Positions 503-53,528 of a stretch of DNA of 54,738 nucleotides are shown in pieces. A model generated the notes under the pieces. The model saw only the letters and a list, made by a program, of their open reading frames with translations, was not told the DNA's origin and did no database searches. The position numbers and the translations under genes were made by a program. The first letter of the stretch is position 1; each line of letters opens with the position of its first letter. The DNA is taken from positions 1 through 54,738 of the forward strand of contig CAYYFK010000003.1 in assembly GCA_964471565.1 (NCBI GenBank). The letters run 5' to 3'. This DNA is from Candidatus Woesearchaeota archaeon (lineage in GTDB: Archaea > Nanobdellota > Nanobdellia > SCGC-AAA011-G17 > PNOQ01).

Positions 503-697
503 ATGGCAGAAATAATACCGATTAAATCAAGAGTAAGGGTTAATAAAGATAAGGGTACTTTAGAAGATTTAACAAGAATGCTTTCTAGTAATAAGCATTG
601 GTTAGCCCAATATGATCTCTCTTTAGAAGATGTTAACAATCCTTTTGTAAAGGAAAGAGTAAAGAGTATTATTTATTCCGAGTATATTCTTGTTTGA
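503..697 (+). CDS. Small hypothetical protein (64 aa)
   Basis: ATG start with TTATAAA upstream; no recognised motif. Confidence 0.6.
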   Translation: MAEIIPIKSRVRVNKDKGTLEDLTRMLSSNKHWLAQYDLSLEDVNNPFVKERVKSIIYSEYILV

Positions 698-710
698 TTG
701 CAAATTTTTC

Positions 711-748
711 CTTGTCACCTTGCCATGCACGGACAGATTGTTTATAAA
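711..748 (+). promoter_or_regulatory. 21-nt conserved element (711-731), 9-nt spacer and TATA box (741-748) upstream of LAGLIDADG gene 1
   Basis: CTTGTCACCTTGCCATGCACG-N9-TTTATAAA; same arrangement on the minus strand at 42829-42792. Confidence 0.8.
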
Positions 749-769
749 TCTTTTTTGCTTTTTTCTTAT

Positions 770-1687
770 ATGGAATTTAATCTCTATGATATGTGCTCTG
801 ATGATAATGTGGTGCGTATTGCTATGGGTGATGAATTGAGATCTAAATTTAATTATTCTGTAAGTAGATTGAGGTTAAAAAGAAAGTTTATTTCGGATAG
901 TTTTGGTTTTGATTATAGTTCTGTTTGTAGATGGTTGAAAAACCATAAGTTTGTCCCGTTGAAATTGTTCAAGCTGTTGAAAGAAGTATATTTTCTTGAT
1001 TTCTCTAATCATATGAAATATTTTGTTGGTTGCTCAAATTCTAGGAAAATAAAAATACCTAAAAAATTAAATGAAAATTTAGCAAAAGTTATTGGTGCAC
1101 ATGTTGCGGATGGTTGCCTTAAGAAGAGAGTTTCACAAAGTAAGAATGGGAGATATATGAGATATGAATTGGTTTTGAGAGAGCAGTATTATTCCCATGT
1201 TGATTCATTTTGTAGATGGTTTAATGATTGTTTTGATTATGGAATAAGACCGATTGATAGGGGGAATCATTTTGAAGTGTATATTGGTAGTAGAGTTATA
1301 TTTGAATATTTTAATAAAATTTTAAAGATTCCTTATGGCCCGAAATCTGCAACCATAAGAGTTCCAGATTACATTAAGAATTCTAATTATAATATTAAAG
1401 TTGCCTTTTTAATGGGAATTTTTATGTTTGATGGATCTGTTGAGAGAAAAACAGGTTATGTAAGTTTGGTTTCGAGAAGTGAAAAATTAGTAAAAGGATT
1501 GTACAAATTATTGGAAGATATTGGCATCGTCCCAGATTACATTAACAAAAAGCCAGACAAATATAAGAGACATAGGTTGATAATAAGAAAGCAAGCTAAA
1601 TTGAAAGAATGCTTAACTTTATTTGAAAAAGATACTGAGAAATGGGAGAGATTGTATAAATTTTTAAAATTAAAACACAAGCTTTAA
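770..1687 (+). CDS. Free-standing double-motif LAGLIDADG endonuclease-family protein with N-terminal HTH-like region (305 aa)
   Basis: Motifs LAKVIGAHVADG and FLMGIFMFDG with both acidic residues present; ATG 770 lies 21 nt after the TATA box and is preferred over TTG 698. No intein splicing motifs seen. Confidence 0.85.
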   Translation: MEFNLYDMCSDDNVVRIAMGDELRSKFNYSVSRLRLKRKFISDSFGFDYSSVCRWLKNHKFVPLKLFKLLKEVYFLDFSNHMKYFVGCSNSRKIKIPKKLNENLAKVIGAHVADGCLKKRVSQSKNGRYMRYELVLREQYYSHVDSFCRWFNDCFDYGIRPIDRGNHFEVYIGSRVIFEYFNKILKIPYGPKSATIRVPDYIKNSNYNIKVAFLMGIFMFDGSVERKTGYVSLVSRSEKLVKGLYKLLEDIGIVPDYINKKPDKYKRHRLIIRKQAKLKECLTLFEKDTEKWERLYKFLKLKHKL

Positions 1688-1736
1688 AAAGAAGTTCTAA
1701 ACCAAATTTGAGTATAGTAAATTAGAATTAAAGAAA

Positions 1737-3933
1737 ATGGCTGAAAAATCGACAGAAATTATAGGGAAAATTATGACGCAGCCTGAGAAGATCAGAAATA
1801 TTGCCATCGCCGCACATTACGATTTCAGTTAAGGCTGTTCGTGTGCAGATCGACCATGGTAAGACCACATTTTCTGATAATCTCTTAGCTGGTGCTGGAA
1901 TGCTTTCTGAAGAGCTTGCTGGTGAACAAAGAGCTTTAGACTTTCATGATGATGAATCTGAGAGAGGAATTACTATAGACTCTGCTTCCGTTTCTATGCT
2001 TCACACTGTTGATGATACTGATCACTTAATTAATTTAATTGACACTCCAGGACATGTTGATTTTGGAGGAGATGTTACAAGAGCTATGAGGGCGGTTGAT
2101 GGTGCAGTTGTTTTATGTTGTGCTGTCGAAGGCATTATGCCACAAACTGAGACTGTTTTAAAACAAGCTTTGAGAGAAAGAGTTAAGCCGGTTTTATTTA
2201 TTAATAAAGTTGATAGGTTAATCAAAGAAGTTAAGTTAACTCCTGAAGCTATGCAGCAAAAGTTTGTTGATATCATTACCCATATTAATAAATATATTGA
2301 GCAAATTGCTCCTGAAGAATTTAAGGAAAAATGGAAAGTTAATATTCAGGATGGATCTGTTGCTTTTGGTTCAGCGTTCCATAACTGGGGGATTTCTTTG
2401 CCTTATATGCAAAAGAAAAATATTTCTTTCAAAGATATAATTGATGCTTATGAAAATGAAACTTACAAAGAATTAGCTAAAAAAGCGCCAATTCATGAAG
2501 TTGTTCTAGATATGACTATCAAACATCATCCAAATCCTTTAATTGCACAAAAATATAGAATTCCTAAAATTTGGCATGGGGATATTGAAAGTGTAGAAGG
2601 TAAGGCACTATCTAATTGTGATCCTAAGGGTGGAGTTGGTTTGATTGTTACTAAAATTGTTGTAGATAAACACGCTGGAGAGGTTGCAACTGGTCGTTTG
2701 TTTTCTGGAACTGTTAGACAAGGCGATGAAGTTTATCTTAATATGGCTAAGAAAAAAGTTAGATTACAACAAGTTTCTGTTTACAAAGGTTCACAAAGAA
2801 CTATGATGGAAGAAATCCCGTGCGGAAATATTGTTGGTTTGGTTGGTTTGAGAGATACTTTTGCGGGAGAAACTGTTTCTACAGAGCCCATGACCCCTTT
2901 TGAAGAAATTAAACATATTTTTGAGCCTGTTATTACTAAATCTATTGAAGCTTTGAAGGCTGCTGACTTGTCCAGATTAATTGAAGTTTTAAGACAAGTT
3001 GGAAAAGAAGACCCAAGTATTAAGGTTGAAATTAATGAAGAAACTGGAGAGAATTTAATCTCTGGAATGGGCGAATTACATTTAGAAATTATTGAGAATA
3101 GAATTAAAAATGAAAAAGGTTTGGAAGTTAAGACTTCTCCACCGATTGTTGTTTATAGGGAAACAGTTACTAAACAAGGTACTGAAGAAGAGGGTAAAAG
3201 TCCTAACAAACACAATAAATTCTATATAGTTGTAGAACCTTTGGAAGATAATATTTACGAGGCAATAAAATCTGGAGAATTATCTGAAGGAAGAGTAAAG
3301 AAAAAAGATAGAGTTGTTATAGATAAGTTAGTTGAATTAGGTTTAAATTCAAAAGATTCTCAAAGATATAGGTATTTTTACAAAGGAAATGCTCTTGTTG
3401 ATGATACAAGGGGAATTGTTCATATAGGAGAAGTTATTGAAATGATTATGGATGGTTTTCAACAAGTTATCAATGCAGGTCCATTGGCTAGAGAGCCTTG
3501 TGCTAAGATGAGGGTAAGAATTATGGATATGAAGCTTCATGAAGATGCAATTCATAGAGGTCCTGCTCAAGTTTACCCGGCAATTAGAGAATCTATTAAA
3601 GGCAGTATGGCAACTGCAGGTTCAAGTATCCTGGAACCTATTCAAGTTATGCAATTTGATAGTCCTTCTGAGTTTTTGGGAAATTTAAGTGGTATGATTC
3701 AGAACAAAAGAGGACAATTAATTAATGTTGATCAACAAGGCGAACATATTTCTGTTAAAGCTAAATTGCCTGTGGCTGAAATGTTTGGAATTGCTTCTGA
3801 ATTGAGATCGGTTACTTCTGGTCGTGGTAGTCAGTATTTAGTTGACCAAATGTTTGAAACTTTACCTACTAATTTGAAGGATGATGTTATCAAGAAAATT
3901 AGAAGTCGTAAAGGTTTAGGCGAGAATGAGTGA
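1737..3933 (+). CDS. fusA: Archaeal elongation factor EF-2, join(1737..1817,1849..3933), 721 aa after splicing
   Basis: Exon 1 MAEKSTEIIGKIMTQPEKIRNIAIAAH joins exon 2 IDHGKTTFSDN to restore G1; DTPGHVDF, NKVD and the diphthamide loop DAIHRGPAQV are present. Confidence 0.95.
1818..1848 (+). other. 31-nt BHB-type intron in EF-2 mRNA
   Basis: Central helix GCAC(1812-15)/GTGC(1843-46), 3-nt bulges ATT(1816-18) and AGA(1847-49), inner helix ACGA/TCGT. Cutting after the 2nd nt of each bulge gives exactly the junction that restores AAH-IDHGKT. Confidence 0.9.
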
Positions 3934-3992: not shown

Positions 3993-4502
3993 ATGACTAT
4001 AGAATTAAAGTTAGGTAAATTTTATACGTATAGTGAACTTGGAGATGGTAGTAGAGTTAGAGAGGGTGGTTCCGGAGGACATTCTTATAAAACTGTTGCA
4101 GATAGAACAAGCAATCCAGAGTTAGCTAAAAGAGTTATGGGTAGAATAAATGAAAGATTATCTGAATTTGGTCAAGGAGACTTTCAATCTTTTTCGGATG
4201 AAAAAAAAGATGAAATATTAGAAAGAGATCTTAGAATTATTGTTGATTCCCCTGCAAAAATTGAGTTAAAATTCAGAAGAAGAGTATCTTGTGAGGGTTA
4301 TGATTTTAATGAGATAATGGGGGAAGCATTATTTATGTTTTATTGGAGTAAAAATTACAATGAGAACCTTAGGCTTTCAATACAAGATCTAAGTAAAGAA
4401 GATTTACCATCATTTAGCTCAAAAAAGGAATCTGAATTTGGATGGATACCCGGTCCAAATATGTATGGATTGATTTTAAAATATAACTTTGATATTGAGT
4501 AG
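3993..4502 (+). CDS. Hypothetical protein
   Basis: 169-aa ORF with its own TTTATAA box, located between EF-2 and EF-1alpha. Confidence 0.7.
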   Translation: MTIELKLGKFYTYSELGDGSRVREGGSGGHSYKTVADRTSNPELAKRVMGRINERLSEFGQGDFQSFSDEKKDEILERDLRIIVDSPAKIELKFRRRVSCEGYDFNEIMGEALFMFYWSKNYNENLRLSIQDLSKEDLPSFSSKKESEFGWIPGPNMYGLILKYNFDIE

Positions 4503-8341: not shown

Positions 8342-8481
8342 GCCGGGATCGCATAATCTGGTATTGCACAGAACCTTAAAATGTAATAAATTTAAGGTGT
8401 GTAAGCCTGGAATTTAATTTCAGAAACATGCCAGTTAGCCTGACCCTTCGGGGTGTCTGGGTTCAAATCCCAGTCCCGGCG
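8342..8481 (+). tRNA. tRNA-Ser(GGA) with two introns: 8372-8404 (position 29/30, 33 nt) and 8413-8436 (37/38, 24 nt)
   Basis: Acceptor GCCGGGA/TCCCGGC, G73, long variable arm, TTCAAAT T-loop. Removing both BHB introns gives anticodon arm CAGGC-CTGGAAA-GCCTG; the body is near-identical to tRNA-Ser(GCT) at 34884. Confidence 0.9.
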
Positions 8482-34883: not shown

Positions 34884-34966
34884 GCCGAGATCGCATAATC
34901 TGGTATTGCACAGGATTGCTAATCCTGGACCCTCGGGTCGTCTGGGTTCAAATCCCAGTCTCGGCG
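34884..34966 (+). tRNA. tRNA-Ser(GCT), intronless
   Basis: GCCGAGA/TCTCGGC, anticodon arm CAGGA-TTGCTAA-TCCTG, long variable arm, G73. Confidence 0.95.
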
Positions 34967-35894: not shown

Positions 35895-36629
35895 ATGGGT
35901 TTACATCTAATTGGACTAGGAATGCATGATGAAAAGGACATCACATTAAAGGGATTAGAAACTATAAAAAAATGTGATTCTGTTTATTTGGAAATTTATA
36001 CTTCTTTGTTAGATTCTTCTTTAGAAAAGCTTGAAGAATTATATGAAAAAAAGGTAAATATTGCTACAAGAGAGATGGTTGAGAAAGATGATAACGAAAT
36101 ATTAGAAAAAGCAAAGAATGAAGAAGTGGCCTTTTTGGTAAAGGGAGACATTTTTGGAGCTACTACCCATATGGATTTGGTTTTGAGAGCTCAAAAATTA
36201 GGAATTAAAATCTATTATATTTTCAATGCATCTGTTATGACTGTTGTTGGTGCGATTGGTCTTGAATTGTACAAATATGGAAAAACTACAAGCATTCCTT
36301 TTGGTAATGAGCATGTTTCTGCTCCAATAAAAATTTTTGATCAGAATTATAAGAATGATATGCACACTTTGTTTTTATTAGATTTAGATCCAATTAATAA
36401 TAAGTTTTTGAATATTAATGAAGCTTCTGAATATTTGATTAAACATGGTGTTGACGAGAATTTGATTGCTATTGGATGTAGTCATTTAGGGAGTAGGGGC
36501 GCAGAAGTAAAAACTAGAACATTGAAAGGTATGACGAATGAGACATTTAGTAGCTACCCTCAAAGTTTGATTATTCCTGCTAAAGATTTACATTTTATTG
36601 AAGAGGAAGCAATCAATAGGTTTAAGTAA
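35895..36629 (+). CDS. dph5: Diphthine synthase
   Basis: LIGLG, VYLEIYTS, GD.FGATTH, LELYKYGKTTSIP, HTLFLLD. Confidence 0.93.
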   Translation: MGLHLIGLGMHDEKDITLKGLETIKKCDSVYLEIYTSLLDSSLEKLEELYEKKVNIATREMVEKDDNEILEKAKNEEVAFLVKGDIFGATTHMDLVLRAQKLGIKIYYIFNASVMTVVGAIGLELYKYGKTTSIPFGNEHVSAPIKIFDQNYKNDMHTLFLLDLDPINNKFLNINEASEYLIKHGVDENLIAIGCSHLGSRGAEVKTRTLKGMTNETFSSYPQSLIIPAKDLHFIEEEAINRFK

Positions 36630-41767: not shown

Positions 41768-41793
41768 ATATGAGAATTTTGTTTAACTTTTGT

Positions 41794-41890
41794 GCGAGCG
41801 TAGTTTAGTGGTAGAATTCGACGTTGCCATTGATAAATTTATTTATTAAGCAAAAACGTCGTGACCCGGGTTCGACCCCCGGCGCTCGCA
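41794..41890 (+). tRNA. tRNA-Gly(GCC) with a 26-nt intron at 37/38 (41830-41855)
   Basis: GCGAGCG/CGCTCGC, anticodon arm CGACG-TTGCCA|A-CGTCG, BHB central helix TTGC/GCAA. Confidence 0.93.
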
Positions 41891-42769
41891 TATATTTTTT
41901 ATTAATTTGTTTGTTGGTATTCTTCCATGTTTAGACCATATCTTGAATTTTAGATTATTTTTAAAATTACTAAATCCTATCTTATTATAATATTCTACTG
42001 CTTCTTTTCCAAAGAGATACAAACAATAATTATCATTGTTTTTTCCTATCCTTGGGTTATAACCCAAATGTTCCAGTGCTTTTTTTAGTGAATCTATCAA
42101 ACTTATTTGACTATTAAAAAATATTATTTGTAAATTTGTTTTGTGGTGCCTGTATAACCCCCCATCAGTATCAAAGAGTCCTCTAATGCAGGGAATTAAA
42201 AGAGTACTTTCGTGTAATATCATCTCAGGTATTGATGAATTTTTCTTCTTCCCGAGTTTTAGATTAAATTGTTTTTGTATGTAATTCACTATGTCTCTAG
42301 AATATACCCTACATTGCACACCATTTGACTTTTTGAAATAATATATGCTTGAAGTTTTGTCAAATAAAAACTTAATTAGGTTTGGTATGTATTTGGTTAT
42401 ATATCTTAGGTCTATTTTGCCACAAGTGATTATCAATCCATTTTGATTTATATGTCCATCACCTAAATATATGCCAATTAGTTCAGCAAGCTCTGGAGAA
42501 ATAAACTCTGGAATTTTTATATTTGAATTATTTATCGGTCTTTTCTCAGATATATGTTCATCAAAAGCGGTTGGATTAACATTTATTAAATTACATAATT
42601 CTTGAAATATTGATTCTCGCATACTACAATTCTCTTTGTATAAATGATTTACCATGCTTTTTGAGATATTCAATAATCCTGCTAATTCAATCCATTTTAG
42701 TCCTGTTTTTGTTCTTATTACTTCTAAAAATTCTTTCTGTTTTTCTTTTTTGAAAATTATGTATTCCAT
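41846..42769 (-). CDS. Free-standing double-motif LAGLIDADG endonuclease-family protein with N-terminal HTH (307 aa)
   Basis: LAELIGIYLGDG and IRGLFDTDG; ATG 42769 lies 22 nt after the TATA box; the 3' end runs antisense through tRNA-Gly. Confidence 0.85.
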   Translation of the reverse strand: MEYIIFKKEKQKEFLEVIRTKTGLKWIELAGLLNISKSMVNHLYKENCSMRESIFQELCNLINVNPTAFDEHISEKRPINNSNIKIPEFISPELAELIGIYLGDGHINQNGLIITCGKIDLRYITKYIPNLIKFLFDKTSSIYYFKKSNGVQCRVYSRDIVNYIQKQFNLKLGKKKNSSIPEMILHESTLLIPCIRGLFDTDGGLYRHHKTNLQIIFFNSQISLIDSLKKALEHLGYNPRIGKNNDNYCLYLFGKEAVEYYNKIGFSNFKNNLKFKIWSKHGRIPTNKLIKNICERRGSNPGHDVFA

Positions 42770-42791
42770 TGGTGGTTGATGTAAAAATGTG

Positions 42792-42829
42792 TTTATAAAT
42801 TCTGTTTGCGTGCGTGGCAAGGTGACAAG
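42792..42829 (-). promoter_or_regulatory. 21-nt conserved element (42829-42809), 9-nt spacer and TATA box upstream of LAGLIDADG gene 2
   Basis: Minus strand CTTGTCACCTTGCCACGCACG-N9-TTTATAAA; 20/21 identical to 711-731. Confidence 0.8.
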
Positions 42830-51250: not shown

Positions 51251-52082
51251 TGTAGATATTGTTCCATTTGATAAATACTCAAAAAATGATAAGTTTTTGA
51301 TATTGGAAAAGGGAAAACCTACTTTTTTTCTAAAGAGGTATAATAAAAATGAATTTAATATCAAATCAATTGCTGAGAGGGAAAGAAATGTTTTGGCTTT
51401 TTTTAATCAAAGTGAACTTCTTAGAACTCCTAGGTTGATTAGGGCAGATGAGGATTATATTATTACTAGATATGAAAGGGACCTCAGTGATGTTAATGTT
51501 TTGGACGCTTTTGATGAAATTGTAGATTTTCATATATCCTCCATGAATTATGATAGTTTTCCTAGTTTTTTTAGAGATCAAGTTTACGCAAATGACCGAA
51601 GAGTAAGGGGCCCAATAAGAGTTAATAAATATAGGGATTTGGTTGAAGTACTTTGGAACCCTGAAGAAATACTTGATTTTATGGCAGATGTTCCTCCCGA
51701 AAGATATAATGCTCTCCCTATAATTTTAACACACGGGGATTTACACAGAGGGAATATTCATAAAAACGAAAGTGGTGAAATTATATTTAATGACTTTGAG
51801 AGATCTTATTTTGATTACCCGACGTGGGATATTGCAAAATCTCTATTGGATTTATCTTATTCAGAGGTTGATTCTTTTATTGATAGATATATTGATGCGG
51901 TTAAAGATTCAATTCCCCATATCTCTGGAGAGAAACTAAGGGAATTAATTATTGGAGATTGCTTATACCGTATATTAACGGATTCTATTTCGGACAGGCA
52001 AACTGATAACTTTAAGGAAGTTGCCGCTAGACATTTGGTAAGGGATCGGGCTTTTTTAGAGAGGTTTGTTTTTCTGAATTAA
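51207..52082 (+). CDS. APH/choline-kinase-like phosphotransferase
   Basis: HGDLHRGNI, FNDFE, WDIAK. Confidence 0.85.
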   Translation: MVEIDCKKKSECWNNVDIVPFDKYSKNDKFLILEKGKPTFFLKRYNKNEFNIKSIAERERNVLAFFNQSELLRTPRLIRADEDYIITRYERDLSDVNVLDAFDEIVDFHISSMNYDSFPSFFRDQVYANDRRVRGPIRVNKYRDLVEVLWNPEEILDFMADVPPERYNALPIILTHGDLHRGNIHKNESGEIIFNDFERSYFDYPTWDIAKSLLDLSYSEVDSFIDRYIDAVKDSIPHISGEKLRELIIGDCLYRILTDSISDRQTDNFKEVAARHLVRDRAFLERFVFLN

Positions 52083-53528
52083 TTTTGCTTTCTTAATATT
52101 TAATTTAGCTGTATTTTTTGATTCTTCTTTTATTTCTGATTCTAAAACCTTTATTTTTTTCTTAAATAGTGGGCAATCCAGAACTAATGATTCAAATTCT
52201 CCGCCTTCTCCGGCAATATTTAGCCCGTTTTTTCTGTTTAGTTTTACCAATTTATCTATATCTTCATTTGTTATTATTTTGTTTAACCATGATTTATCTA
52301 AACCATCTGCTGCTATTGAAGAAAATATTATTTTGAAATTATTTTTTATTATTTCCCTCATAACTTCTTCTTGGTCTTTGTGCCATAATGGGGAAAATAC
52401 TTTTAATTTTAATTCCTTTGCAATCTTTTCTATTCTGTCTCTTTGATATTCTGAGAATAAAGCCCCAGTTATAATTCCTTGAATTTTGTATTTTTGTTTA
52501 GCTTTAATTAGTGCTTTTTCTAAATCTTTTAATTCGTGCTCTTTTTTTCCTGTTGTTTCTTGTAAAATTATTGGAATCTGCATCGCTTTTGCTTGTAATT
52601 CTGCTAAATGGATATTTGGAGTGTGATACATATATGAATCTGGATTTTTTGATTTAATTGTTATTAAGCAAGATATATTATATCCTTTCATTAAGTAGGT
52701 AGAATAACAAGAATCTTTTCCTGAAGAAAATAAAATTCCTAATTTCATAAATTGATTGAGATATTCTGATTTAAATTTTTTTTCTTTTTTTGCAAGCTTT
52801 TCTATTGCTTTATCTGATTTTGATCCGTATTGCGCTGCTTTTTTTGGCCTTAAAGAATATTTTTTTGGAATCCCTTCTTTTATTGCTAAATCCCTTAAAA
52901 TAAATTTATTTATGTTATTTTTTATTTTATATTTTTTTGGTATTTTTATTGAGTACTTCACTAACTCTTTTTTTAGGTATGGTGTTCTTATCTCTAAATT
53001 ATGATATTTTGTTATTAGTATATCCCTTATTAGATCTATTTTGTAGACATTTCTTAATCCGTCTTTTAACTCTTTATTTAGGTTCTTAGATTTTTTATGT
53101 CTTGAATATCCTCCAAAGATTTCATCTGAACCTAGACCGGATAAGACTATTTGTGTTTTATCCTTTTTTGCTAACTCTGATGCGGCATATATTGCCAGCG
53201 CCACAGAAACTTGGATAGGATTTGTGTTTTTTAGCATTGTGATTATTTTTTTTAGATATTTTGGAATCTCTTTTTGATTGATTATTTTATGTTTAAGTTT
53301 TAGATTTAGTTTTTTTGCAATTTCTTTTGAATTCTTTAGGTCTTCTGCATCCTTATCAAATGCGATTGTGTAACATGTAAAGTTGTAGTTTAGTTTTTTT
53401 AAATAATTGGCTAGAACTAGCGAATCTATTCCTCCTGAGAAAAATAGTCCAATTTTCTTATTTTTGGGGATACTTTCAATTGCATCTATTAATAACTTTT
53501 CTACCTGTTTTTGTTGTATTTTGTACAT
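52056..53528 (-). CDS. Asparagine-synthase-like domain fused to diphthine--ammonia ligase (Dph6)
   Basis: Two PP-loops: FSGGIDS (with SGLGSDEIFGGY) and FSSGKDS (with DSYMYH, GEGGEFES). Confidence 0.85.
   Translation of the reverse strand: MYKIQQKQVEKLLIDAIESIPKNKKIGLFFSGGIDSLVLANYLKKLNYNFTCYTIAFDKDAEDLKNSKEIAKKLNLKLKHKIINQKEIPKYLKKIITMLKNTNPIQVSVALAIYAASELAKKDKTQIVLSGLGSDEIFGGYSRHKKSKNLNKELKDGLRNVYKIDLIRDILITKYHNLEIRTPYLKKELVKYSIKIPKKYKIKNNINKFILRDLAIKEGIPKKYSLRPKKAAQYGSKSDKAIEKLAKKEKKFKSEYLNQFMKLGILFSSGKDSCYSTYLMKGYNISCLITIKSKNPDSYMYHTPNIHLAELQAKAMQIPIILQETTGKKEHELKDLEKALIKAKQKYKIQGIITGALFSEYQRDRIEKIAKELKLKVFSPLWHKDQEEVMREIIKNNFKIIFSSIAADGLDKSWLNKIITNEDIDKLVKLNRKNGLNIAGEGGEFESLVLDCPLFKKKIKVLESEIKEESKNTAKLNIKKAKLIQKNKPL

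Follow-up and report, generated by a model that had tools for sequence, protein, structure and literature searches.

Among archaeal mRNA introns, just one is backed by experiments, that of the cbf5 gene of Crenarchaeota (PMC2738675, PMC5829648). These pre-mRNA introns, found in Desulfurococcales and Sulfolobales, are 16-44 bp long, are of the bulge-helix-bulge (BHB) type and interrupt a catalytic codon; their removal by the tRNA-splicing endonuclease has been confirmed experimentally, and they are routinely mis-annotated (PMC2738675). The authors of that work speculated that they descend from an intron with an endonuclease open reading frame (ORF) that is now lost (PMC2738675). Reviews and recent structural papers cite cbf5 alone for archaeal pre-mRNA splicing. 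Here we describe an insert of 31 nucleotides (nt) that is very likely another intron of this kind. It interrupts the gene for elongation factor EF-2 in an archaeon placed by its relatives in the Woesearchaeota (DPANN; GTDB Nanoarchaeota). The stretch of DNA analysed, called the window below, comprises positions 1 to 54,738 of contig CAYYFK010000003.1 and has a G+C content of 30%.

Like the cbf5 introns, the EF-2 insert is short and of BHB type, lies in a protein gene, breaks a catalytic motif, has no room for a protein-coding sequence, and is patchily distributed and mis-annotated. It differs from them in its host, the P-loop of EF-2, and in its lineage, low-GC DPANN/Woesearchaeota from non-thermal metagenomes; furthermore, EF-2 has four insertion sites within 14 nt, up to two introns around an 11-nt micro-exon and a linked free-standing endonuclease gene. 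While splicing has been confirmed for cbf5, it is predicted for EF-2 from sequence. Crenarchaeal cbf5 introns were reportedly also the subject of a study by Watanabe in 2002, earlier than that of Yokobori in 2009 (PMC2738675). In archaeal rRNA, BHB introns encode LAGLIDADG endonucleases (I-DmoI, I-PorI, I-Tsp061I), and the EF-2 locus similarly pairs a BHB-type intron with a predicted LAGLIDADG homing endonuclease. In the rRNA introns, however, the ORF lies inside the intron, whereas the EF-2 intron has only 31 nt and the ORF is outside it, upstream of the host start codon.

In phages, group I introns that have no ORF of their own may be mobilised by a free-standing endonuclease; this collaborative homing is exemplified by cyanophage psbA/F-CphI and T4 mobE/I-TevIII (PMC6083498, PMC2790892, PMC3984707). 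At the EF-2 locus, too, an endonuclease gene stands beside the interrupted gene, an ORF-less intron occupies a highly conserved coding site, and close relatives have both or neither. The differences are that the EF-2 intron is of BHB type and would be spliced by proteins rather than being a self-splicing group I intron, that another domain of life and another endonuclease family are involved, and that cleavage site and immunity are hypothetical for the EF-2 endonuclease. P-loop inteins occupy the same DNA as the EF-2 introns, their GK|T site being 2 nt from one intron site, and the free-standing endonuclease linked to EF-2 is most similar to intein endonuclease domains. Inteins, however, are in frame and are removed at the protein level, whereas the EF-2 inserts, being out of frame or stop-bearing, have to be removed from the RNA. 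Finally, RtcB-dependent, non-spliceosomal mRNA splicing is described for HAC1/XBP1 and for the "SOS splicing" of transposons (PMC12779559). These systems share with the proposed EF-2 splicing the removal of an mRNA insertion by a structure-recognising endonuclease and RtcB-type ligation; they differ in being eukaryotic and in using other nucleases (Ire1 or unknown) and other recognition structures.

A literature search of incomplete coverage returned no BHB intron in the mRNA of EF-2 or of a DPANN archaeon, and no free-standing endonuclease paired with a BHB intron; an initial annotation, made from the sequence of the window, likewise cited no earlier intron of this type in EF-2. The host gene, the lineage and the multiplicity of introns appear to be new, and the partnership in mobility of an endonuclease with a BHB intron is probably new as well. 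If correct, our interpretation extends tRNA-type mRNA splicing to DPANN and to an essential, highly expressed gene, inside its catalytic P-loop, and translation capacity in these organisms would depend on EndA and RtcB.

The insert in the EF-2 P-loop

EF-2 is read from the forward strand in two different frames. Exon 1 (1737..1817, +) opens with ATG 1737 and has 27 codons, specifying MAEKSTEIIGKIMTQPEKIRNIAIAAH (MAEKST…RNIAIAAH); it codes for the first half of the P-loop, ends with the His codon at 1815-1817, and can be matched, each codon to its counterpart, with the N-terminal coding sequences of L001-L004 and other related loci, which are uninterrupted (L numbers denote such loci throughout). 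Beyond 1817 the same frame yields YDFS followed by TAA at 1830..1832 (+). This gives an ORF at 1737..1832 with the product MAEKSTEIIGKIMTQPEKIRNIAIAAH+YDFS*, and translation of unspliced RNA would end at this TAA after 31 amino acids (aa). Exon 2 (1849..3933, +; 694 codons, stop codon 3931-3933) begins with ATC in the other frame and reads IDHGKTTFSDN…. The segment between the exons, positions 1818-1848, is 31 nt long (TACGATTTCAGTTAAGGCTGTTCGTGTGCAG) and interrupts EF-2 81 nt past the start codon, between the His and the Ile of the P-loop AHIDHGKT.

A single junction, 1817 joined to 1849 (CAU to AUC), gives back AH-IDHGKT. With positions 1818-1848 deleted in this way, the gene encodes a complete five-domain aEF-2 of 721 aa, in which Pfam recognises GTP_EFTU (17-229), domain 2 (D2), EFG_III, EFG_IV and EFG_C, and which shows 94.9% aa identity to the uninterrupted L001 protein over 721 residues. 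The GTP_EFTU match begins at profile position 1 and thus covers the exon-exon junction. At this junction the predicted spliced RNA reads GCCGCACAU|AUCGACCAUGG, and the peptide that spans it is NIAIAAHIDHGK. The initial annotation had read the two frames, the insert, the in-frame TAA and the 31-aa product just so. It had also warned that gene callers mis-annotate the gene; indeed, the publicly called protein either has 696 aa and starts at GTG 1843 or has 710 aa and starts at TTG 1801, exon 1 being missed in each case. A group I or group II intron was considered and rejected, 31 nt being far too short and Rfam giving no match. An intein was also rejected as the nature of the insert, which is out of frame and stop-bearing.

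The insert is present in natural populations. There are 19 public contigs that code for the EF-1α protein found in the window, and the 5' end of EF-2 is covered by nine contigs from seven samples, those behind ERZ23498945/660/664 and JGI 3300007512, 3300008952, 3300009008 and 3300013119; on all nine, produced by different pipelines (ENA and JGI), the 134-nt region of the insert is identical, with 99.97-100% identity overall. Recurrence in seven independently assembled samples means that the insert is no assembly error, and an artefact of assembly or sequencing, in favour of which only the general prior for metagenome assemblies can be cited, has a negligible probability. Alignment to the EF-2 of relatives, a check proposed in the initial annotation, yielded both empty and filled sites. 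The closest relatives (L001, L081, L082, L088, L002-4 and L083/84/145; EF-2 89-96% identical at the aa level) have a collinear exon 1 and the exact empty site …GCACAT|ATTGATCATGG…, so that the window allele is a clean 31-nt insertion of recent date, and a homologous 32-nt intron occupies the same site in L176-179.

The gene might instead be broken, either as a pseudogene or as a split into a 31-aa peptide and a 696-aa protein, with EF-2 function supplied from elsewhere. With 54.7 kb of the genome in view, a second copy is possible, and gene callers do treat the gene as truncated. However, the two exons are whole and well conserved, exon 1 runs collinear to that of relatives, the identical allele recurs in the seven samples, and no genome assembly gave two EF-2 loci among the best 80 related loci. 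Exon 2 retains the diphthamide-site motif HEDAIHRG, and the kept diphthamide His, together with diphthamide genes in the window, argues for the functional status of the interrupted EF-2. Finally, nucleotide could not be bound by a P-loop divided between AH and IDHGKT, and 15 lineages have like "damage", always with this RNA structure (see below). We therefore hold a broken EF-2 to be very improbable. The diphthamide genes were identified by eye from their translations: one is diphthine synthase-like (35895-36629, +) and the other (52056-53528, -) looks like diphthamide synthase (Dph6) fused to an Asn-synthase-like domain.

RNA structure was analysed by computing the minimum-free-energy (MFE) fold of positions 1800-1865. 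In this fold a 4-bp central helix pairs the exon strand GCAC (1812..1815, +) with the intron strand GUGC (1843..1846, +). The intron (1818..1848, +) forms a hairpin (1819..1842, +) made of an inner helix, ACGA 1819-22 / UCGU 1839-42, and an apical stem, CAGU/GCUG (1826-29 / 1834-37). On the 5' side, the 3-nt bulge AU|U (1816..1818, +) carries the predicted EndA cut 1817/1818; opposite to it, at a distance of 4 bp, the loop AG|AU (1847..1850, +) carries the predicted cut 1848/1849. Each cut thus falls two bases into an unpaired stretch, and the register set by the central helix is that of the frame-restoring junction. The initial annotation had proposed the same central helix (GCAC/GTGC), inner helix (ACGA/TCGT) and apical stem and, from the rule that EndA cuts after the second base of a bulge, the same two cuts. 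Its pair of 3-nt bulges was half right: the AUU bulge at 1816-18 is as described, whereas the 3' site is a 2x4 internal loop (CC 1810-11 vs AGAU 1847-50) closed by a weak outer helix of UCG (1807..1809, +) with CGA (1851-1853). The outer helix, which it had called imperfect, has 0 bp in strict register. The motif is of the relaxed bulge-helix-bulge class, HBh', as in the I29 relatives (h = 1 bp).

At the frame-restoring (i,j) pair, all eight pairs of the central and inner helices form. One strand of the window offers ~3.1 million (i,j) pairs, and 2520 of them have a motif as good as this one, or ~8e-4 per specified junction; the significance of the structure lies in its geometry and register and not in its fold energy. 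The window-wide scan for ORFs joined by BHB-like motifs, on which this rate is based, was non-specific, with ORF-joining matches mostly at gene boundaries; it established no second split gene in the window and was used solely for the chance rate. An internal control for the cleavage rule is provided by a tRNA gene of the window (41794-41890, +). Cutting after the second base of each bulge excises 41830-41855, a 26-nt BHB intron in the canonical place (37/38), and the remaining 71 nt form a tRNA-Gly(GCC) that is accepted by ARAGORN; the unprocessed tRNA (41793-41891) is called Asn (att) by the same program, which ignores the intron.

Mini-introns in related EF-2 genes

We collected 160 related loci, which collapse to 122 distinct EF-2 sequences. 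The P-loop is intact in 94 of these, contains an intein at GK|T in 13 and carries an insert of 28-35 nt in the remaining 15 (~12%). Intron junctions were set only by restoring AH[IV]DHGK[ST]T, and positions are counted in nt after the IRN anchor. Four insertion sites, spanning 14 nt of P-loop codons, were found. Position 27 (H|I) is the site of the window intron. Position 29, within the Ile codon, is used in L115 and L046/127/129/136, and position 33 (D|H) in L010, L016/102/103, L117, L025/114, L038 and L029/121. Position 40, within the Lys codon, is used in L030, L123, L133 and L034/130, and by the second intron of L046 and its like. The latter group (L046/L127/L129/L136, two or three distinct sequences) has two 31-nt introns, at positions 29 and 40 (e.g. 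L046 2929-3001), on either side of an 11-nt micro-exon, AGATCATGGAA. Intron lengths range between 28 and 35 nt, with 31 nt in 11 of 21 cases. Like the window intron with its TAA, 20 of the 21 contain an in-frame stop; these include all four whose length is a multiple of 3, so that none can be read as an in-frame insertion.

The intron lineages are scattered over the EF-2 tree among intron-less and intein-bearing ones. No other insertion site was seen within EF-2 of the related loci, and the P-loop of EF-1α is uninterrupted in 87 of 87 loci. Some "matches" of 2.5-2.9 kb in the locus tables were considered as further inteins and rejected, as they are joins to the downstream EF-1α gene. The recurrence of the phenomenon, in about one related EF-2 gene in eight, at four sites and with double introns, has a practical side: standard gene callers truncate all these genes, and wherever EF-2 serves for marker-gene phylogenies or for estimates of completeness, the results are affected.

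About 20 further P-loop mini-introns follow the same structural rule as the window insert. When pairing was scored in fixed register across 20 introns, 87.5% of the cells of the central helix, 95% of those of the inner helix and 65% of those of the outer helix were paired, as compared to 53%, 48% and 48%, respectively, with shuffled partners. None of 2000 shuffles reached the observed central or inner values, and sliding the 3' junction by 1 to 3 nt either way lowered central-helix pairing to 29-39%. Fixed-register counts with these controls were preferred over MFE folds because short helices fall to alternative registers. Synonymous changes in the exon strand of the central helix are answered in the intron strand, with five pair types in the I27/I29 class (GCAC/GUGC, GCAC/GUGU, CCAC/GUGG, GCAU/AUGC and CCAU/AUGG) and, in addition, AUCG/CGAU or CGGU versus AUUG/CAAG; this covariation was recognised partly by eye. 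Two-sided changes, the signature of a conserved BHB structure, were found both in the central helix and in h', the latter between the window and L176. The intron of L176-179, TATGATCTAGCCTAAAACTATTTCATGTGCAT, is homologous to that of the window: the site is identical, the ends TAYGAT…GTGCAK are common to both, and a stop occurs at the fifth codon in either. Its stems differ from those of the window in a compensatory manner, ACGA/UCGU being replaced by AUGA/UCAU and CAG/CUG by UAG/CUA.

These comparisons also bear on the idea that ribosomes might bypass the 31 nt, or shift frame over it, with no RNA splicing involved, in the manner of phage T4 gene 60. Soon after the break there are indeed a hairpin and a stop codon, in superficial likeness to a bypass signal. 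Take-off and landing codons, however, are unmatched: the window has CAU before the gap and CAG at its end, while the D|H class has GAU followed by gaps that end in UUA, UUU, UUG or GUG. Furthermore, the gaps of 28-35 nt at four sites fit one covarying cleavage-register rule, which is a property of EndA substrates. Bypassing thus appears scarcely credible.

Altogether, the sequence facts, a cleavage rule valid on a tRNA of the window, the existence of empty and filled alleles, the homologous intron and the covariation within the family lead us to conclude that the sole EF-2 gene of the window is very likely interrupted, in its P-loop, by a 31-nt archaeal BHB intron of relaxed type. In the pre-mRNA, exon bases GCAC (1812-15) would pair with intron bases GUGC (1843-46) and set both splice sites; EndA would cut at 1817/1818 and 1848/1849, and RtcB would join CAU to AUC, generating an mRNA for the normal 721-aa EF-2. 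From the established sequence, structure register, frame restoration, comparative pattern and presence in natural populations, we infer that splicing takes place and that EndA and RtcB are the enzymes concerned. As the BHB consists in part of translated exon bases, 81 nt from the start codon, splicing would have to compete with co-transcriptional translation. To our best overall reading, in which the insert is an mRNA intron spliced by EndA/RtcB and probably the immunity half of a homing element, we assign a probability of about 0.85.

Several observations count against this conclusion. The fold energy of the insert does not differ significantly from that of shuffled sequences (z = -0.99), a textbook BHB is the MFE structure in only 5 of 20 related introns, and the central helices are poor in two intron lineages (L029/121 and L034/130). 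The window motif departs from the canonical hBHBh' arrangement, with 4 bp in the inner helix h' and an outer helix h that exists only in displaced form, with 3 bp; lacking a true outer helix and having a 2x4 loop at the 3' site, it would not be cut by an EndA of strict specificity. Genes for EndA and RtcB were not found among the ORFs of the window, whose translations were read by eye over the 54.7 kb. A search of protein collections with the spliced N-terminus returned no spliced or intron-less form more than 85% identical, the matches all being short fragments and hence uninformative. As to the enzyme, relaxed BHB motifs need an EndA of broad specificity (PMC5829648), and in DPANN, EndAs that possess an additional loop have been connected with tRNA genes that are highly disrupted and have relaxed motifs (PMC5829648). 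Given such enzymes, an HBh' motif could plausibly be cleaved; the EndA gene of this particular organism lies outside the window. Moreover, two of the three tRNA genes of the window have extra internal sequence, shown in one of them to be a canonical intron, and with interrupted tRNA genes the organism must have a working EndA and a ligase.

In addition to mini-introns, inteins at GK|T were observed in L009, L014, L026, L032, L043, L065, L071, L080, L091, L092, L101, L105, L107, L112, L125, L126 and L173. Mini-inteins measure ~390-600 nt, and full inteins, which have LAGLIDADG domains, ~1.4-1.7 kb. In some cases the total length of the insert cannot be divided by three (e.g. 1457 nt), a hint that an intein and one or more introns share the gene. 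This combination was confirmed in L173, which has the upstream endonuclease gene, a 32-nt intron and an intein. A divergent EF-2 clade of 56-62% identity (L052, L059, L066-L069 and L072) has the P-loop AHIHHGKTA in place of AHIDHGKTT.

The LAGLIDADG gene upstream of EF-2

The initial annotation missed a neighbour of EF-2 that is probably the reason for the existence of the intron. A cassette of ~1.05 kb (690..1736, +) fills the spacer upstream of EF-2; in blastn comparisons with L001/L081/L082/L088, homology ends at 689 and resumes at 1737. In these four loci, whose EF-2 is 95-96% identical to that of the window, a spacer of ~41 nt takes the place of the cassette, and both the endonuclease gene and the intron are absent. 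The cassette contains a free-standing, double-motif LAGLIDADG gene of the homing-endonuclease type (770..1687, +), annotated publicly as 305 aa from ATG 770 within an ORF open from 698. Its stop codon is separated from the intron by 131 nt.

The product of this gene matches Pfam LAGLIDADG_3 (PF14528) with an E value of 5e-8 and a score above the cut-off, and its best sequence matches among solved structures are intein endonuclease domains (7qsu, PI-PkoII, E 2e-9). An AlphaFold model (pLDDT 88.7, pTM 0.88) retrieved the TliVMA intein, PI-PkoII and I-DmoI in Foldseek searches, with E values of 1e-9 to 1e-11, bI3 being also among the matches; superposition of the model onto I-DmoI gave a target-normalised TM of ~0.73. 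Both LAGLIDADG motifs (…ADG… and …FDG…) and both catalytic Asp residues are invariant in 10 homologues that share 37-77% identity. By motifs, modelled αββαββα fold and active-site residues, the product is thus classed as a LAGLIDADG homing endonuclease with predicted cleavage activity. At the N-terminus of the model there is an extra domain of ~100 aa, whose helices resemble a helix-turn-helix.

This is a small family, of which 8 proteins were retrieved at E<1e-10 and which counts 8-10 members in all; in every context recovered the gene lies directly upstream of EF-2. An upstream endonuclease gene goes with an intron at position 33 in L016/102/103, L038 and L172 (30 nt in the latter), with an intron at position 29 in L173/174 (32 nt, plus the intein), L175 (34 nt) and L180 (33 nt), and with the 32-nt intron at position 27 in L176-179. 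In one contig, known from its protein annotation with no DNA, a 31-aa ORF precedes the next gene. Overall, a P-loop intron is present in 8 of 9 sequence-checked endonuclease lineages, as against 12 of 118 lacking the endonuclease (Fisher p = 8e-7); in the unbiased scan set alone, the figure is 3 of 4 (p = 0.006). This co-occurrence and the 131-nt spacing conform to the pattern of collaborative homing.

Both elements or neither are found in two independent pairs of close relatives, with 95-97% EF-2 identity: the window versus L001/81/82/88, and L177 versus L089. The EF-2 of L177 is 75% identical to that of the window and 97% identical to that of L089, which has no cassette and no intron. Synonymous differences between L177 and L089 are concentrated around the intron, with 12 in codons 21-40 where ~3.8 would be expected from a background of 0.19 per codon. 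In L176-179, EF-2 apparently starts with TTG (L177 ~1466), right after the endonuclease cassette, the start being ATG in the intron-less L089.

The linkage, read in the light of phage collaborative homing, makes it fairly probable that the intron and the endonuclease of 770-1687 are the two parts of a single selfish element. The endonuclease would cut the P-loop DNA of intron-less EF-2, a target suggested by the linkage; the intron, by splitting this target, would make its carrier immune; and repair of the double-strand break would copy the endonuclease gene, exon 1 and the intron together. Such a model would account for the tight linkage and for the both-or-neither pattern among close relatives, for the clustering of sites within one LAGLIDADG-sized target, for the choice of EF-2 rather than EF-1α, and for lineages that keep the intron after loss of the endonuclease. 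Three of the intron sites and the intein site lie within a stretch of 15-20 bp, and the intron and intein sites taken together span about 15 bp, which is compatible with a single LAGLIDADG target of 18-22 bp.

Some data do not sit easily with a homing link. One lineage, L002, has the upstream endonuclease gene and an intact P-loop with no intron, and 12 intron lineages have no endonuclease gene within 2.5-3 kb. Between the window and L001, synonymous differences around the intron number 7 in 19 codons, where ~4.3 would be expected (0.23 per codon), and this excess is not significant. Furthermore, the related loci that enter the association counts are not phylogenetically independent. One may thus imagine that the intron is real and spliced and that the LAGLIDADG gene next to it is unrelated, being a mobile gene that favours the spacer, a domesticated DNA-binding regulator of the EF-2 operon or a maturase-like helper. 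Besides L002 and the 12 lineages just mentioned, the extra N-terminal domain would fit such roles, and domestication of LAGLIDADG proteins is known, for example as maturases (bI3, one of the Foldseek matches). This possibility is at odds with the frequency of introns in endonuclease lineages (8 of 9 versus ~10%), with the two both-or-neither pairs, with the retention of both catalytic Asp residues in divergent homologues and a patchy distribution resembling that of mobile elements, and with the confinement of three intron sites and the intein site to the size of one LAGLIDADG target; a maturase, in particular, is not required for BHB splicing. We consider an unrelated gene less likely and favour the two-part element.

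Whether archaeal BHB mini-introns of protein and tRNA genes spread in general as two-part homing elements is a broader proposition, to which we would give even odds. According to it, a free-standing LAGLIDADG gene would settle beside a conserved host gene and cut the most conserved DNA of the latter, while an EndA-excisable insert of 20-35 nt would serve as the immunity determinant and be carried along by co-conversion. On this view, inteins, mini-introns (one or two) and the endonuclease would alternate as occupants of a contested site, the EF-2 P-loop of Woesearchaeota. The linked free-standing endonuclease offers a testable mechanism for the gain and movement of ORF-less BHB introns. If two-part spread is true, it would be the first mobility mechanism for such introns and would explain their entry into protein genes, and the endonucleases of this family would provide natural meganucleases whose target sequence is conserved universally.

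Other tRNA and protein genes of the window

Between EF-2 and EF-1α lies a conserved ORF of 169 aa (3993-4502, +) with no Pfam match, which is found at the same place in independent assemblies. Just downstream of the gene for ribosomal protein S10, a tRNA of 140 nt (8342-8481, +) was detected by Rfam only (35.8 bits). Its arms nearly match those of tRNA-Ser(GCT) at 34884-34966, with ~57 extra nt in place of the anticodon arm. Single-deletion trials combined with ARAGORN were ambiguous and gave no unique solution; this tRNA may have two introns or one non-canonical intron.

A second free-standing LAGLIDADG_3 gene (41846-42820, -; Pfam E 3e-8) converges on the tRNA-Gly(GCC) gene and overlaps its 3' end by 45 nt. 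It belongs to a family that is large in DPANN (107 matches at E<1e-8). Homologues of 55-57% identity occur in the same convergent overlap with tRNA-Gly(GCC) in two further loci, one of which lacks an intron in the tRNA (L181) while the other has one of ~20 nt (L182). Together with the intron-bearing tRNA-Gly(GCC), the gene at 41846-42820 may represent a second case of pairing between an endonuclease and a mini-intron.

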